The notes under the pieces: generated by a model | The model's input: the letters and a program-made list of their open reading frames with translations, nothing else | The model's database searches: none | Told to the model about the DNA's origin: nothing | Source of the DNA: Promethearchaeota archaeon | GTDB taxonomy: Archaea > Asgardarchaeota > Lokiarchaeia > Sigyniarchaeales > SOKP01 | Assembly: GCA_029838195.1 (NCBI GenBank) | Contig: JALGVJ010000005.1 | Span: forward strand, 64,001-128,000 | DNA length: 64,000 nucleotides | Direction of reading: 5' to 3' | Part shown: piece after piece, positions 1,534-12,089 of the stretch | Numbering within the stretch: the first letter of the stretch is position 1 | Layout: every line of letters begins with the position of its first letter | Position numbers and translations under genes: made by a program

Positions 1534-2019
1534 TTAACTCGGTTTCTTCTTTTTTGAACGTCTTGAAAAATAAAATTTGAAATAAAAAAACAATCCAAGA
1601 TAGACGCAGAACTCCGAACCCATGTACAGTGTATTTTTAACTATTTTTAAATGATCTTGAGGAACATTTTCGGGATTCATCATCGTTAAAAATACTTTTT
1701 TATAGTCGGCATTTGATACAATCCAATGAGCCATGAAAGTTTCGTCATTCACGGTCCTTAGTCCAAGTGCTTTATAATTTTTTACTATAATTTCATATAC
1801 ACCGGTATTAAGTTTCAGGGTTCCACCATATTCTTGAAATTTATTATTAAGCAGATCACTAATCCCATGAATACCACAGGATGGATTCCAAATTCCTTTC
1901 ACTGACACCACATTCCACATGAACGCTAAATGCAGCATTGACATTATGGGTGATTGGGTGCCTTGAGATCCTAAAAGCCTTTTTAAAGAATCATAATCAT
2001 CGTAATTCTCTTTCTGGAT
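1534..2019 (-). pseudogene. Internal fragment of a phytoene desaturase-family FAD oxidoreductase
   Basis: 'GIWNPSCGIHGISDLL...GGTLKLNTGVYEIIV...WIVSNAD...FCVYLGL' matches the central CrtI-like region; the frame is open about 25 codons upstream of the called Met; no N-terminal GxGxxG and no C-terminal half. Confidence 0.65.
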
Positions 2020-2029
2020 TTAAATCCAC

Positions 2030-2245
2030 TCACATGAAGATTTCTTCAATTTGATCCAAGGTAATTAATTTTTCTTCTACTAGTTGTCTAATGAACTTAT
2101 AGGCAGCACATTCATATTCCTTTTCCCAGTATTCTTGGTCTTCTTTATAAAAATTGCATTTATGACAGACGCGATTAATTAATTGTTTATTTAACGGAGA
2201 GATGTCATTTTCTGTTCTTAAATAGACATGTTTTTTTTCCACCAT
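2030..2245 (-). CDS. Small Cys-motif protein (CxxCxF...EC), possibly metal-binding
   Basis: CHKCNFY...ECAAY; AGGTGA SD-like element upstream; co-oriented directly downstream of the radical SAM gene. Confidence 0.6.
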   Translation of the reverse strand: MVEKKHVYLRTENDISPLNKQLINRVCHKCNFYKEDQEYWEKEYECAAYKFIRQLVEEKLITLDQIEEIFM

Positions 2246-2286: not shown

Positions 2287-3408
2287 TTAAGGATTTTTTT
2301 CGTTTTTAGGAAGACGTCCATATCGATAACACATGTAAATATCCTCCCCTAACACGTCGCCTGTTTCAACATAAGCTCGATATCTACATCCACCTCTACA
2401 TTGATTTAAAAACTCACAATTAATTTCAAAACATTTCAGATCTTTAATATTCCAATTTAATCTTTCTTGTATTTTCCTCCAGCTCTGTTTTACCCCTAAT
2501 TCAAACACGTTTCCTAAATCATTTTCACTGAAGAATCCACATTTCGAAATATTCCCTAAAACATCTATAGCCATGATATTTGGCCCACATGCTAAATCCT
2601 TAAAGGAGGTTTCTGACTCGTAAAAAACACCCCATCCATAAGACTTTAAGACTTCTGCTCCTTTTTTACCGGAAATTGCATATTTTTCACGAATGTCTTT
2701 CGGAATGGATTCGTCATAGGTGGGGATGTCTAATATCCAATTTTTAATAGGCCCTAAATTTTTAATGAATTGTTTAAGGGCATTAAATTCATTTACATTG
2801 CGAGCATGAATCATGGTATTTATGGTAACATGAATATCGTGGTGTAATAAAAGTTTAATTCCTTCAATAGTATCTTGGAAACATTTAACATTTCTAAATT
2901 CATCATGCGTATCTTTTAATCCATCTAAGCTTACAAAGACTTCAAAATAATTTTCCTTCAGTAGAGGTAATAGTTCTTTTTTTTGTTTAATTAATGTACC
3001 GTTCGTTAACAAAACTTTTTGTAAAGGAACTTTTTTGAGAAATAGAAGTAATTGTTTCAAGTTTCCATATAAAAATGGTTCTCCTCCCGTCAGAATTATT
3101 CTTAACCCGTGTAATTCATAAAAATCCCTAATTAATTTTATTAAATCTTCTATTGCTATATCTTGTTGCTTCTTATTCGTGAGATAACAATGCTTGCATT
3201 GCAAATTACATTTCTCGGTGATATTAATCATTAATTTCGTTAGATATGGTTCTTTAAAAATATTCTTTTCCGGTAAATTAAGATGCTCCTTTGATACCAT
3301 GGCCTCGTTAGTCATGGGAAAAGGGGAGGATTGAATGATACCAAGTTCTATGAAATTCTTGAATGCATCTTGAATTTCTTTTCTTTTTTCGGGAAGATAT
3401 TCATCCAA
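2287..3408 (-). CDS. Radical SAM/SPASM domain protein (main part)
   Basis: CNLQCKHC cluster motif, TGGEP, TNG; SPASM Cys pattern ACGPN...GNISKC...CFEINCEFLNQCRGGCRYRAY...YMC. Confidence 0.9.
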   Translation of the reverse strand: MDEYLPEKRKEIQDAFKNFIELGIIQSSPFPMTNEAMVSKEHLNLPEKNIFKEPYLTKLMINITEKCNLQCKHCYLTNKKQQDIAIEDLIKLIRDFYELHGLRIILTGGEPFLYGNLKQLLLFLKKVPLQKVLLTNGTLIKQKKELLPLLKENYFEVFVSLDGLKDTHDEFRNVKCFQDTIEGIKLLLHHDIHVTINTMIHARNVNEFNALKQFIKNLGPIKNWILDIPTYDESIPKDIREKYAISGKKGAEVLKSYGWGVFYESETSFKDLACGPNIMAIDVLGNISKCGFFSENDLGNVFELGVKQSWRKIQERLNWNIKDLKCFEINCEFLNQCRGGCRYRAYVETGDVLGEDIYMCYRYGRLPKNEKNP

Positions 3409-3569
3409 TATTTCCTGAAAAGTTTTTTTCCCTCAATTTTTTTTAAAATTGCAAAAGCTTCTTCATCAATAAGATAGGATTCATCATTTTTTAAATCAAA
3501 AAGGTTGATTTCTTGGTATTTTCTAAGCGTGATGTGGTGTGGAAGATATGGATATAGATTAAGATTCAT
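3348..3569 (-). CDS. N-terminal PqqD/RRE-like domain of the radical SAM protein, separated by a -1 frameshift at about 3423-3432
   Basis: Adding one A in the run joins the frames as 'ESYLIDEEAFAILKKIEGKKTFQEILDEYLPEKRKEIQDAFKNFIELGII', an RRE-like wHTH pattern. Confidence 0.7.
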   Translation of the reverse strand: MNLNLYPYLPHHITLRKYQEINLFDLKNDESYLIDEEAFAILKKIEGKKLFRKYWMNIFPKKEKKFKMHSRIS

Positions 3570-4860: not shown

Positions 4861-5211
4861 ATGAGATTAACTGAAGATGCTATAAAAGTCATTCAAGAAC
4901 AGCACGAAGAAATCTTAAAAGAGGATGAATCGAACACCCCTGCTCTCTTAATATATCAATATTACACGAGATCATGATCCAGAACGTCTTGCACCATCGT
5001 GGTTCGACTATTTCCAAAGAGCCAAATCTTGGCCCATGAAGATAAAATAAAAAAATGGACTGAAATAGAAGTAGGTGATAAAAAAATCGAAGTTTTCTTA
5101 GAAAAAACTCTTCTCGGTGAATTAAAAAACCCTGAAGATTTCATCCTCGATGGTCAGATCTGGAAAATGGTCAAATGGAGTCGAAGTTATTTATTCTTGA
5201 AAAATAAATAA
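4861..5211 (+). CDS. Putative selenoprotein, HesB/IscA-like fold, 116 aa with Sec (UGA at 4975-4977)
   Basis: ATG 4861 reads MRLTEDAIKVIQ...ALLIYQYYTRS-TGA-SRTSCTIVVRL, in frame with ORF 4999..5211; SECIS-like hairpin just downstream. Confidence 0.8.
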
Positions 5212-5224
5212 AAATAGAAAAAAG

Positions 5225-5260
5225 ATGACCTAATCTTAAAAAACCTAGAAGATTAGTGAT
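5225..5260 (+). promoter_or_regulatory. Eukaryote-like (Lokiarchaeal type) SECIS element in the 3' UTR
   Basis: ATGA-C-CTAATCTT-[AAAAAACCTAG]-AAGATTAG-TGAT: AUGA/UGA kink-turn quartet, perfect 8-bp stem, unpaired A run at the 5' side of the apical loop. Confidence 0.8.
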
Positions 5261-5344
5261 TTACGGCTGCAACCGTTTTTCCTCATTCCTTTTTTTTCTC
5301 GTGCTTTTTCATTGCCCATTGAACTCTCTCATCTCTTTAAAATG

Positions 5345-6440: not shown

Positions 6441-6614
6441 ATGAAAGAACTTCCCTCATATCAACATTAAACCTTTTTAAAATATTATTAGACCAAAATC
6501 ATTTCTAATTTAAAGAAAGTAAGTATTTCTTTACTTTTATTCAAGATAAAAATATGAAAAAAAGAGAGTTTTAATTATTATTAGAAAAAAAATAGAAGAT
6601 TAGCCAGGTTTTTC

Positions 6615-6722
6615 TTAGCACGCATCTCCTCCACACTTACAGGAGAGACTAATGCATGCATCTCCACCGCATTTACAGCTTACGGCTTCAATCTTTTTCT
6701 TTTCTTTTTTTACGATTTTCAT
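6615..6722 (-). CDS. 35-aa Cys-rich peptide MKIVKKEKKKIEAVSCKCGGDACISLSCKCGGDAC (RiPP precursor-like or metallothionein-like)
   Basis: Manual translation; the duplicated core is encoded with synonymous differences (agc tgt aaa tgc ggt gga gat gca tgc vs tcc tgt aag tgt gga gga gat gcg tgc); AAGGT SD-like element upstream, TATA box upstream, T-run downstream. Confidence 0.85.
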   Translation of the reverse strand: MKIVKKEKKKIEAVSCKCGGDACISLSCKCGGDAC

Positions 6723-6800
6723 TTTTTTTACCTTTTTTAGTTTTGTTTTAAATTTATTAGAACAAATTAATTGAATTTGTTATACTAACTGATTAGGTAA

Positions 6801-6808
6801 TATATAAA
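6801..6808 (-). promoter_or_regulatory. Putative TATA box (TTTATATA) for the Cys-rich peptide gene
   Basis: Consensus archaeal TATA about 80 nt upstream of the ATG; weak evidence in AT-rich DNA. Confidence 0.35.
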
Positions 6809-6949
6809 TTCATTGGTTATAGAGGGTAGTATGAGTGTTTTACAAAATGGTGTGAATTAATGGGTTTGTTATAAAAAGGATTTAAGGAGTATGAGGGATT
6901 TCAAGAATAATATGAATGCAAGTAAAAAGGGGGTGAAAGATCCGATGGA

Positions 6950-8511: not shown

Positions 8512-8936
8512 TTTCTTTCTATTTTTTTGTTTTTTTATGCAGACCTTAATTTCAAGATGAAAAAATTTAGAATGCTTAAAAAGAATTTATTTATAAAAAA
8601 TTTGCGAGATTTCGGATCATACTTGATAAATTATATTTTTAAAACTTGAACCAGCTTTAATTTCAATAAGGCAGAATTATAATCTCATATAACGATTCAA
8701 AATGGCTTTCTTTAAAAATTGATTTCGGATTACCATATTTCTTTAGATTTAGGTTTTTTTTTAGCTAATTAAGGAAATTTAATTCATTATTTAACCTTTT
8801 TTAATTATTTTATTGCTCTTCATACTTGGTTATAATATAGTAATACTTTTAAATAATTTATAATTTATAATTTATAATACTAACTTTCAAAATAGTAATA
8901 TCTTAAAAATAAAATATAAAAATAAATGATAAAAAA

Positions 8937-9610: not shown

Positions 9611-9931
9611 ATGCAACCGTTAATTCGATATAAAGGGGTTATTTTAACCATAGCTATAACCCTCATGGTGCTTCTATTGATGATTGCAATCGGTTTTTCT
9701 ATTGGGATTTTATCTGACAATCCCGATGGCTTGGAAAGAGTATTGATTGATGCTAAAGGGGAACATTGGTTAGAAAATTTACCCTCACCTTGGGAGCCCA
9801 TCTTAGGAGGAATCGAAAATGAGTACATTGCAGGCGTCTTGGGAGTGATTTTAACCTTGGTAATCATCATAGGGATATTCTATCTTATTATCATCTTGAA
9901 AAAGAAGAAAGAAGAGAACGATAATGAATAA
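9611..9931 (+). CDS. PDGLE-domain membrane protein (NikN/CbiN-like)
   Basis: SDNPDGLERV between two TM helices; directly after cbiM. Confidence 0.85.
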   Translation: MQPLIRYKGVILTIAITLMVLLLMIAIGFSIGILSDNPDGLERVLIDAKGEHWLENLPSPWEPILGGIENEYIAGVLGVILTLVIIIGIFYLIIILKKKKEENDNE

Positions 9932-10100
9932 GATCTTAAAGAATTCTCGATTATACAGACGCTCGACCATTTTTTAAAGGTGGTACTTCATAATTACCTC
10001 TTAAGAACTGATAATAATTCTTATTTTCCAATTTTTTTTAATAAATTAATGTTTAATCGCGTCTAAATGAAATAAAATGAGAGAAAAATAAAAACAAAAC

Positions 10101-10676
10101 TTACTCTTTTTCTAGCGTTCTCCCGTTCTTGTAGCTTATATCAAGGAATTGTTTTTTAGCTTGAGAAGGTAATAACGCATTTTTTATGGATTCTATTAAA
10201 TCTTCTTGAAAATCGTTAAAATTCTCGCCCGTTAGAGCGGAAATTTCGAAGTATCGCATGTTATTTTGTTGCGCTATTTTTAGAGCATCTTCTCTTGAAA
10301 CCACCCGAGGATTACTATCAATTTTATTTGCTATAAGGTAGGTTTGTATAAGATTTTCGTTTTTGATAAGAGGGAGCCAAGATGAAATATTTAAAAAAGA
10401 AGGAAACCGAACCACGGAAAAAGTTAGAATGAGGACGTGCGCACTTTCAAAAAATTTTTCTTGAAAATCTCTAAATTGAGTTTGTCCTCCTAGGTCCCAT
10501 ATCTGGGCATGAATTAGATTTTCCTCCGAGATCTTAAGATGGTGGAAATCGATTCCAACCGTCATTTCTCTATTCTTGCTTAAATCCAATGTCCCTGTTA
10601 ATTTTTGAGCTATAGTTGTCTTTCCGACACCGCCATCTCCGCAGAGAACAATCTTTAACCAAGTTTTTGTTGACAT
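10101..10676 (-). CDS. Rab/Ras-like small GTPase
   Basis: G1 GDGGVGKT, G2 TVGIDF, G3 WDLGGQ, G4 NKID, G5 EISAL; no C-terminal prenylation Cys. Confidence 0.9.
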   Translation of the reverse strand: MSTKTWLKIVLCGDGGVGKTTIAQKLTGTLDLSKNREMTVGIDFHHLKISEENLIHAQIWDLGGQTQFRDFQEKFFESAHVLILTFSVVRFPSFLNISSWLPLIKNENLIQTYLIANKIDSNPRVVSREDALKIAQQNNMRYFEISALTGENFNDFQEDLIESIKNALLPSQAKKQFLDISYKNGRTLEKE

Positions 10677-11026
10677 TTTAAGAACTTAATCAATTATGAG
10701 AGATGTATTTTAAAATAAAAGGATAAAATCCTTAATCATTTAAAATATCCCTTAATCTATTTAATTTATTAATAGCGTATGGCGAAATGAATAAAATTCA
10801 TTTATTAATTTTAATTGAAAAGAAGACCTATATAAAGTTTTCTTATTTTAAGAAGGTCATAAAATTAGCGCATATTAAAGGCTCCAATAATGCGCAAAGA
10901 TAAAAAGAATTATCTGTCAATAAGAGATTTCAATCGGATATAAAATTAATAAAAAAAATTAATCTTAATAGGAGTGTTAATTTAAGCTAGAATGATTTCA
11001 TTTCTTAAAGAAAATCAATACCTACC

Positions 11027-11536
11027 ATGTCAGAAGAAAAATTAAAAATAGAGCGCATTAAGAAGGGAACAGTAATAGATCACGTGGAAAGCGGTTATGC
11101 TCTAACGATATTGAATTTAACGGGCTTAGATGAATCGCCGAATTTAATGACAATTGGAGTAAATGTAAATTCAAAAAAATTTGGAAAAAAAGACATAATT
11201 AAAATCGAGAACGTGTTTTTAACTGAAGTACAAATGCAACAAATATCCATCTTATCCCCTAATGCAACCATTTCTTTAATCGAAGATTATAAAGTGATAG
11301 AAAAAAAAAGAGTGAAACTTCCAAAAATAATCAAGAAACTCATCGTGTGTACCAATAGAACGTGCATAACAAATTCACGGGAAGAGCCAATAGATTATGA
11401 ATTTAACGTGTTGCAAGAAAAACCATTGAGGATTCAATGTGTTTATTGCGATAGAATATACCGATTGGATGAGATCATTTTTGCCACCAAGAGGAAAAAA
11501 GAGAATAAATTTCTAAAGCAAATAATTGAATTATAA
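11027..11536 (+). CDS. pyrI: Aspartate carbamoyltransferase regulatory chain
   Basis: IKKGTVIDH, GKKDIIKIEN, Zn ligands CTNRTCIT and CVYC. Confidence 0.95.
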   Translation: MSEEKLKIERIKKGTVIDHVESGYALTILNLTGLDESPNLMTIGVNVNSKKFGKKDIIKIENVFLTEVQMQQISILSPNATISLIEDYKVIEKKRVKLPKIIKKLIVCTNRTCITNSREEPIDYEFNVLQEKPLRIQCVYCDRIYRLDEIIFATKRKKENKFLKQIIEL

Positions 11537-11657
11537 TTAGAATCGATATATTGTCCCCTCATTTGACTTTTTTATTCCTTAATTTTCCGTTTCATTTTTC
11601 AAATTACCTTGAAAAAGGAAAATGGATAACAATAATCAAATTAAAATATAGATGCTT

Positions 11658-12089
11658 TTAGTAAAACATTAATAACGTATGAATCAGAGTTCCCACAATC
11701 ATGAATAAAAAAAAGTAAATTCCTACTCCGGGTAAAATAATATTTTTCCAATTCCACGTTTCTTTATCATATTTATATCTAAAAAAGACGAAACTCACGA
11801 AGAAAGGAAATAAAAACCAAAATGCAAGCATCCAGATAAAAAGGGACCATCCCACAAATCCGAGGATGTATCGCCCGACAAATGCACTCAATATGCCAGT
11901 TGCGGCCCTAATCCAATACATGCGCGTTTCTTTTCTTAAACGGATTTCGAGCTCATCTTCTTTTTCTTTAATTTCTTTTTTTTCTTCAATTTTTTTAACT
12001 TCTTTTGGAGGCAATTGTTTTTGTTTTTCCTTGATTAGTTGTTTTCTTCGTTTTCTGAGGTCAACTTTTTTCTTTCTCCTTTTAAACAT
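11658..12089 (-). CDS. EMC6/Rab5IF-like three-TM membrane protein
   Basis: Charged N-tail, 'YWIRAATGILSAFVG..ILGFVGW', C-terminal 'GVGIYFFLFMIVGTLIHTLLMFY' resembling the EMC6 pattern. Confidence 0.55.
   Translation of the reverse strand: MFKRRKKKVDLRKRRKQLIKEKQKQLPPKEVKKIEEKKEIKEKEDELEIRLRKETRMYWIRAATGILSAFVGRYILGFVGWSLFIWMLAFWFLFPFFVSFVFFRYKYDKETWNWKNIILPGVGIYFFLFMIVGTLIHTLLMFY

Follow-up and report, generated by a model that had tools for sequence, protein, structure and literature searches.

The window, i.e., the whole 64,000-nucleotide stretch of Promethearchaeota archaeon DNA which was analysed here, holds on its minus strand a very short gene, which is given below along with the elements that flank it.

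6615 to 6722, minus strand: candidate precursor peptide gene, ATG start, 35 aa; leader MKIVKKEK plus a linker, then two CKCGGDAC cores
6730 to 6733, minus strand: SD-like AGGT, 8 nt before the ATG; GGT is found also in the same-genus genome G162
6801 to 6808, minus strand: TATA box TTTATATA; TTTA[AT]ATA does not vary among 8 aligned orthologous promoters, and 36 promoters contain it
6585 to 6592, minus strand: T8 run, 22 nt past the peptide stop; archaeal-type terminator signal

The encoded peptide begins with a basic leader and ends with two identical nine-residue units, S-CKCGGDAC, which have ISL in between and the second of which terminates at the stop codon. A 35-residue minus-strand reading frame with a duplicated SCKCGGDAC is what the first-pass annotation had described, and such a frame is indeed present. 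The two units differ at five of nine codons, i.e., one fewer than the six originally counted, with all five differences synonymous (Ser agc/tcc, Lys aaa/aag, Cys tgc/tgt, Gly ggt/gga, and Ala gca/gcg). The SD-like element, TATA box, and T run that had been pointed to are likewise there, the latter two at positions conserved in seven orthologous loci. A T run (5 to 12 T) is seen at the equivalent place in eight of eight aligned loci, even where the start of an enzyme gene, described below, follows 70 to 90 nt later. No Rfam family overlaps the peptide region, and the exact CKCGGDAC core pattern occurs at a single locus in the window's genome.

Upstream of the peptide gene and on the same strand are cbiQ and cbiO, from which cbiM-cbiN diverge, and downstream are a DUF2934-like ORF and, on the other strand, a VTT/DedA gene. 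The enzyme gene is in the window approximately 3.2 kb from the peptide, with an opposite-strand gene in between. Between peptide and enzyme are found as well, within 4861 to 5262, two short plus-strand ORFs (4861-4977 and 4999-5211), the second of which has a homologue in G162 at 51% identity. Several genera have in common, upstream of the peptide, a gene for a Rab/Arf-like small GTPase (window 10101-10676, minus strand; L031:5800-6336; L035:3358-3888; L055:617-1114), which probably is plain synteny.

The peptide belongs to a family of approximately 40 gene versions, these from Promethearchaeia, Hydrothermarchaeota, and other metagenome contigs, and given these homologues the ORF at 6615-6722 is a genuine conserved gene rather than a chance reading frame. 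The family leader, MKI[VE]KKEK, is eight residues long and almost invariant. It is followed by one to three copies of a C-K-C-x3-C core, located at the C-terminus or one residue from it. The four-residue core spacer of the window's peptide (GGDA) is peculiar to the window, with all other members of the family alignment displaying x3. Occupying the variable core positions are GGD, GGG, GGS, GSA/GSS, GDS, HKS, and GAS, among others; as these include sets without Asp, this possible thioether acceptor is not invariant in the cores, and the sole invariant candidate acceptor residue is Lys.

By synteny, a homologue of 43 aa was located in same-genus G162, where it has three CKCGGDC cores, and a looser core pattern led to three-core homologues in G148, G169, and G174; in the taxonomic family, four genomes beyond G162 also carry the peptide. 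A profile search of 5.8 billion proteins, for which the 43-aa member was placed first in the query, returned six small proteins, from Promethearchaeota or unnamed sources, with the named ones described as hypothetical. A leader-based DNA pattern gave 15 loci among 185,579 species genomes, twelve of them from Promethearchaeota, Promethearchaeia, or uncultured archaea and two from Hydrothermarchaeota. The leader pattern as used with metagenomes supplied approximately 21 true members among 35 matches, the other 14 or so being dismissed as unrelated short ORFs. Searching instead from the enzyme added seven further peptides, these with slightly diverged leaders. Single-core peptides adjoin more distant enzyme relatives. 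Rejected as chance were the one match to a back-translated CKCGGDAC pattern in 400 genomes of the phylum, which is out of frame inside another ORF, and single CKCGGD matches in G158, G197, and G211, where there is no ORF.

A sub-family (L036:1299-1454, L035:6001-6117, L071:832-987) has CK and CGGDC 10 to 11 residues apart, with the intervening residues rich in aromatic and acidic ones, the MKI[VE]KKEK leader kept, and the enzyme nearby. The G159 assembly has two peptide genes, L038 and L047, which differ by one residue and are found on different contigs, just one of them beside the enzyme; these are paralogues or strain variants.

Neither Pfam nor NCBIfam offers anything for the peptide at E values up to 10. 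In the literature, neither its core nor its leader strings were found, nor was any report found combining radical SAM, precursor peptide, and Lokiarchaeota, and the peptide-enzyme system is not described in the databases or literature searched. The family has been overlooked by gene callers in many assemblies, and it thereby illustrates the extent of small-gene biology which annotation omits.

That the synonymous differences between cores reflect selection on the peptide had been suggested from the window's gene, and the family bears this out. When cores of the same gene are compared, for 32 multi-core genes, there are 359 synonymous versus 25 nonsynonymous codon-path differences. The codons of different cores, that is, are approximately as divergent as random synonymous choice permits, with the protein identical. 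Variable core residues differ among lineages, and within one gene the cores nearly always agree. This is relevant to viewing the ORF as a regulatory upstream or leader ORF, e.g., one involved in cysteine or metal sensing, which gives rise to no product. The ORF is indeed very short and rich in Cys, and there is a T run between it and the next gene. Conservation nevertheless is on the peptide sequence rather than on codons, the gene has its own conserved TATA promoter, and in several genomes it is divergent from the enzyme or kilobases away. We consider a regulatory leader ORF to be scarcely credible.

The enzyme in question, along with a small gene that follows it, is found downstream of the peptide in the window.

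2287 to 3569, minus strand: RRE-radical SAM-SPASM enzyme gene, interrupted so that it is read as two overlapping frames (3348-3569 and 2287-3408); Pfam Radical_SAM 7.9e-20
3423 to 3429, minus strand: A7 run at the enzyme frame break, with a 1-nt shortfall; reads G_GGA_AAA_AAA_C, where G162 reads GGAAAAAGTACA, has no A run, and is intact
1997 to 2245, minus strand: small three-Cys helper gene (C-H-x-C ... C), a homologue of which is found together with the enzyme in Promethearchaeia, in Hydrothermarchaeota, and on other archaeal contigs

By tblastn, the intact G169 orthologue of the enzyme matches the window at 52% identity over residues 47-418 and, in another frame, at 62% over residues 1-47. 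Across fifteen orthologues, the CxxxCxxC motif and seven SPASM Cys are invariant, as also are D29, D35, E37, and A38 of an N-terminal region of approximately 85 residues. An AlphaFold model of the enzyme (pLDDT 86.8) has N-terminal strands plus three helices, i.e., a beta3-alpha3 fold. Its fold matches are, best first, SuiB (E 5e-15, TM 0.66), SkfB, CteB, and TigE, and then anSME, all of which are radical SAM enzymes of the SPASM/twitch type, peptide maturases for the most part and in several cases with an RRE. A search of PDB by sequence returned matches to the radical SAM core only. Among NCBIfam equivalogs, PapB (NF047865), AlbA (NF012164), StsB (NF045574), ACGX (TIGR04340), and mycofactocin (TIGR03962) are not reached at cut-off, with best NCBIfam scores of 59-115 bits versus cut-offs of 265-850. 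Four orthologues (L111-L114, from G167, G168, G166, and G150) match the G169 enzyme over residues 1-320/324 only, within frames of 446-467 aa, and their SPASM ends may be divergent or extended.

How closely peptide and enzyme are associated may be gauged from 33 distinct gene versions obtained by peptide-first searches, ten of which are cut by contig ends. The enzyme is present in the same locus in 18 of the 33, six of these with a gap of 100 bp or less, and absent from the stretch examined in five. In 19 of 23 informative loci the peptide is on the same contig as the enzyme, with the other four showing no enzyme within 5-7 kb of the peptide. For two of the five enzyme-less stretches the enzyme is on another contig, and all five of the peptide genomes so checked have the enzyme elsewhere. 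Compact loci have the peptide gene 68-94 bp upstream of the enzyme. Particularly, in G169 and G148 it is 88 and 76 bp upstream, respectively, of an intact enzyme orthologue, which a homologue of the helper then follows; in G162 the enzyme is 9.3 kb downstream of the peptide, on the same contig. A compact locus is seen also in L031, with peptide, enzyme, and helper at 9911-10036, 10127-11383, and 11460-11702, respectively. From the perspective of the enzyme, 23 of the order's 154 genomes have an orthologue, every one of them from a single family, and it is missing from the 96 genomes of the two largest genera; the peptide is present in at least 18 of the 23, and two remaining loci are cut by contig ends. 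The peptide tracks the enzyme across genomes, with proximity to cbi genes seen in two genera only.

This association is kept through changes in how the genes are arranged. Most Promethearchaeia have the order peptide-enzyme-helper, in G166-G168 and L051 the peptide gene is divergent from the enzyme, and Hydrothermarchaeota and L119 have instead the order peptide-helper-enzyme. In Hydrothermarchaeota and on other archaeal contigs, the peptide has one core and an identical or similar leader; the enzyme beside it is 34-35% identical, and a homologue of the helper is present too. As the linkage persists across gene order, orientation, and phylum, synteny alone is not an explanation. No protease, exporter, or other gene is found as a widespread neighbour of the cassette. 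Two wider enzyme relatives, L116 and L117, have no CKC peptide nearby.

The window's peptide had been proposed as a substrate of this enzyme. That proposal gains support from the linkage, the co-occurrence, the recurrence in a second phylum, and a predicted leader-RRE complex. The latter was modelled using the G169 enzyme and G169 peptide along with SAM and three clusters. Its ipSAE is 0.81, 0.79, and 0.81, versus 0.08 for the best control, values which describe a model rather than a measurement; the mark used for such scores is reached by 58 of 80 solved complexes and by 2 of 110 mismatched pairs. Contact agreement among runs is at least 50%, and the pLDDT of the partner is 39-48. The predicted interface brings peptide residues 1-13 together with enzyme residues 29-38, 41, and 65-76, i.e., the usual RRE groove, and with 312-318. 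The leader, residues 1-13, is confidently placed, docked on the RRE, and the cores are left unplaced. Part of this success may reflect likeness, as relatives have solved RRE-leader complexes. The model supports leader-RRE binding as a prediction.

The helper gene which follows the enzyme is read in the window as a 71-aa CxxC protein. Within its family the helper is approximately 81 aa long and has a 74% mean column identity, a conservation above that of the enzyme; C-H-x-C and the third Cys are invariant and a DLNPxR tail is conserved. Shorter homologues from Hydrothermarchaeota and other archaeal contigs display the motif C-x2-C-x-FYK ... EC-x-A[FY]K. No Pfam or NCBIfam model matches the helper. 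Its model is helical (pLDDT 70), without a fold match in PDB and, in the Atlas, with a match only to its own Promethearchaeota cluster. The helper may bind a metal or cluster, or may act as a chaperone.

In the window, both the enzyme and the helper are interrupted. Supplying one extra A at 3423-3429 restores the conserved protein sequence of the enzyme, and a -1 ribosomal slip on A_AAA_AAA, or the addition of an A in transcription, would result in exactly that conserved protein. The break may instead be an assembly error or a real mutation. Within the helper there is an in-frame TGA (2030-2032, minus strand) where relatives have Arg or Lys. It removes the last 10 residues, with the conserved DLNPxR tail still encoded at 2000-2029, and it may represent a nonsense mutation, an assembly error, or read-through. 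Both genes are intact in same-genus G162, and the peptide gene itself is intact in the window. The lesions may be assembly errors, or else the system may be impaired locally. Nearby, at 1534-1944 on the minus strand, a 136-aa ORF matches only part of a 516-aa FAD-type oxidoreductase. In G162, L040, L044, and L075 that oxidoreductase is encoded downstream of the peptide or of the cassette. The 136-aa ORF may be another truncated gene of the region.

From one perspective, then, what is seen in the window is a decaying relic of a family which is functional elsewhere, with enzyme and helper as pseudogenes and the peptide as a remnant that has not yet degraded. Two independent lesions in partner genes which are both intact in a same-genus genome, as well as a peptide that is down one core and of atypical core length, are consistent with such decay. 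The frameshift nevertheless falls within an A7 homopolymer, a typical site of assembly error or slippage, and the nonsense codon costs the helper only its last 10 residues. The window's cores, further, differ only synonymously and both have the extra Ala, as encoded by different codons (gca and gcg), which would suggest that the peptide stayed under selection in the window's lineage. The window promoter, as considered next, also is the genome's best match to that of the family. Local change or decay of the system we view as rather unlikely, though the most serious of the rival readings.

The promoter is where a tie to metals is encountered, and the relevant elements in the window are these.

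6828 to 6834, minus strand: proximal operator box, TCATACT; its start is 26 nt upstream of the TATA box start, at the position of family box 2
6889 to 6915, minus strand: exact double box TCATAT-N15-TCATAC, with a 21-nt period; further upstream, just past the cbiO stop
8819 to 8826, plus strand: TTCATACT box of the cbiM promoter; this operator element is shared with the peptide promoter

A single architecture is shared by 36 distinct peptide promoters, consisting of two TCATAYT boxes 21 nt apart, the second of which is approximately 25-26 nt upstream of TTTAAATA; as these promoter blocks were picked by CATAY near a TATA box, the sample favours box 2 but not box 1. An exact TCATAY-N15-TCATAY is seen in 30 of the 36 and in 10 of 24 cbiM upstream regions of the family, the latter including genomes without the peptide system. 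The background in the window's genome is 9 sites in 9.0 million positions, both strands (approximately 1e-6 per base), and the double box at 6889-6915 is one of the nine. A TTCATACT box is present at least once in nearly all cbiM promoters, the window's included, and some have an everted form, TCATACT-N12-AGTAWKA. Using a full-promoter matrix built from other genera only, the window promoter ranks first in its 4.5-Mb genome, at 26.8 bits versus 17.3 for the next. The third-best match is the divergent promoter of a ZnuA/ABC-3/ABC ATPase/FmdE metal importer, in which a TCATAC box is present. That importer promoter (G000 contig C87:4775-6294, L149) carries TCATACTATTTTATAAAAGGGTATTA, which is almost identical to the G162 cbiM operator. 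The G000 cbiM promoter has one box only and was not ranked high by either the promoter or a box-only matrix. A simple box-plus-TATA pattern has 20 genome matches, which is about the chance level, and so is uninformative alone; a palindromic TCATAC site at C22:37016 is inside a coding region and was set aside as chance.

The E. coli NikR operator is an inverted repeat, GTATGA-N16-TCATAC (PMC7055735). Its resemblance to the elements seen here consists of the hexamer TCATAC, in two copies approximately two helical turns apart, at Ni/Co uptake promoters. The boxes of the peptide promoters, by contrast with that inverted repeat (PMC7055735), are repeated in direct orientation, with a period of 21 nt. 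The window's genome has a NikR gene (contig C87, from 95769), and NikR autoregulation was rejected, there being no operator upstream of NikR genes. Given a double TCATAY common to cbiM promoters and a TCATAC at a ZnuA-type importer, the peptide is probably part of a metal (nickel/cobalt) homeostasis regulon.

The first-pass annotation had offered, as an alternative to enzymatic modification, that the peptide is a Ni/Co binder, this because it follows cbiQO. Of that argument, adjacency to cbi genes does not hold up as a general rule, as cbiM is within approximately 10 kb of the peptide only in genera g1 and g10. What does stand is the operator shared with cbiM promoters. Probably, as judged from sequence, a role involving metals is not exclusive of modification, concerning instead the function of the modified product.

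In its strict form, i.e., as an unmodified, metallothionein-like Ni/Co (or Zn) binder in which CxCx3C binds metal as translated and the enzyme is merely syntenic, the alternative is a true rival. Cys-x-Cys is a classic N2S2 metal site, as with Cys-Gly-Cys at the distal Ni of acetyl-CoA synthase. Along with the cbiQO neighbours and the TCATAY operator, it also is the case that the enzyme is broken in the window and the peptide gene is not. Five family peptides, however, matched no Pfam metallothionein family at E values up to 10, and some members have a single core and so only three Cys. The cbi genes, moreover, are near the peptide in two genera only, the enzyme linkage survives changes in gene order, orientation, and phylum, and the invariant leader docks in the model on an RRE, so that an unmodified binder appears improbable.

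The preferred explanation is instead that the ORF is the conserved precursor gene of a radical-SAM-modified peptide, one that relies on leader/RRE docking and likely is part of a metal regulon, a combination which we hold with good though not full confidence. Modification of the peptide by the nearby radical SAM enzyme, as a separate matter, is very probable from sequence. By this mechanism the basic leader would bind in strand form to the N-terminal RRE of the enzyme, at its acidic beta3/alpha3 groove. Every core would then be modified by the SPASM enzyme, most likely through formation of an intramolecular thioether, or otherwise of another cross-link via Cys or the invariant Lys. The thioether is a guess, as no acceptor residue other than Lys is invariant; an S-C-alpha bond would place the product among sactipeptides, and an S-C-beta/gamma bond among ranthipeptides. 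The product probably is intracellular, as no conserved protease or exporter is nearby and the core is invariant across phyla. Within a nickel/cobalt homeostasis regulon, the regulator and direction of control of which are presumptive, the peptide would probably then handle metal via its Cys-x-Cys sites.

Taking these steps further, and only tentatively, the radical-SAM-tailored, ribosomally encoded Cys peptide might be an intracellular Ni/Co chaperone, buffer, or cofactor-like chelator, which would be co-regulated with importers and have a conservation reaching from Asgard archaea as far as Hydrothermarchaeota, and which would be neither an antibiotic nor a signal. Were the product such a tailored metal-handling peptide, then it would be a new player in the supply of Ni/Co to the hydrogenases, CODH/ACS, and corrinoid enzymes of anaerobic archaea. 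Asgard archaea are the closest prokaryotic relatives of eukaryotes. To our knowledge, archaea have hardly been explored for radical-SAM-modified peptides, and no such peptide from an Asgard archaeon has been characterised. A short leader combined with a fused RRE would also make for a compact peptide-engineering tool.

Several known systems resemble that described here. The SCIFF (CteA)/CteB ranthipeptides of Clostridia (PDB 5WHY/5WGG) likewise have a short, strongly conserved, Cys-rich precursor beside a single RRE-radical SAM-SPASM enzyme, with no protease or exporter in the cassette, and CteB is among the best fold matches. By contrast, the present system is archaeal, has a leader of only 8-13 residues and one to three C-K-C-x3-C cores, and has in addition a conserved three-Cys helper and a metal-type operator, with no curated model at cut-off. 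Freyrasin, i.e., PapA/PapB with six CX3D thioether motifs, similarly has a repeated short Cys motif, the copies of which presumably are modified independently, and the window enzyme aligns with the PapB model over positions 3-327 of 330. The score, however, is 59-75 bits against a cut-off of 340, and Asp is missing from many of the cores seen here (GGG, GGS, GSA, HKS).

From archaea, CrpA/CrpC of Methanococcus voltae also involves an RRE-radical SAM-SPASM enzyme beside a repeated Cys-rich substrate (PMC13692751). There the enzyme installs a thioether (ranthionine) on the substrate encoded alongside, and the system is reported to be linked with metal/sulfur supply, being upregulated on pyrite (PMC13692751). 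CrpA differs in being more than 100 aa long with a 47-residue N-terminal recognition region, and CrpC belongs to family TIGR04463 (PMC13692751). Proteins of less than 100 aa were left out of that study (PMC13692751).

Mycofactocin (MftA/B/C) and PQQ (PqqA/D/E) combine a tiny, invariant precursor with a small accessory protein and a radical SAM-SPASM enzyme. Invariance from phylum to phylum, together with the absence of export genes, suggests a cofactor-like intracellular product here as well. RRE and enzyme, however, are fused in the present system, the accessory protein is helical with three Cys and has no fold match, and the core is Cys-rich rather than Tyr/Glu-based. The ACGX-repeat peptide system (TIGR04340), lastly, has repeats of a short Cys-Gly motif beside a radical SAM-SPASM enzyme; the enzyme here scores 67-80 bits against that model's cut-off of 400, and the peptide matches no NCBIfam peptide model at E values up to 10.

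Judged by its sequences, the family has the architecture of RRE-dependent radical SAM-SPASM peptide systems and at the same time falls below every curated equivalog threshold. It is set apart by a minimal leader, by a three-Cys core which is invariant across phyla, and by a metal control element. The features specific to the family are its eight-residue leader, its C-K-C-x3-C core, its helper protein, and its metal-type operator.
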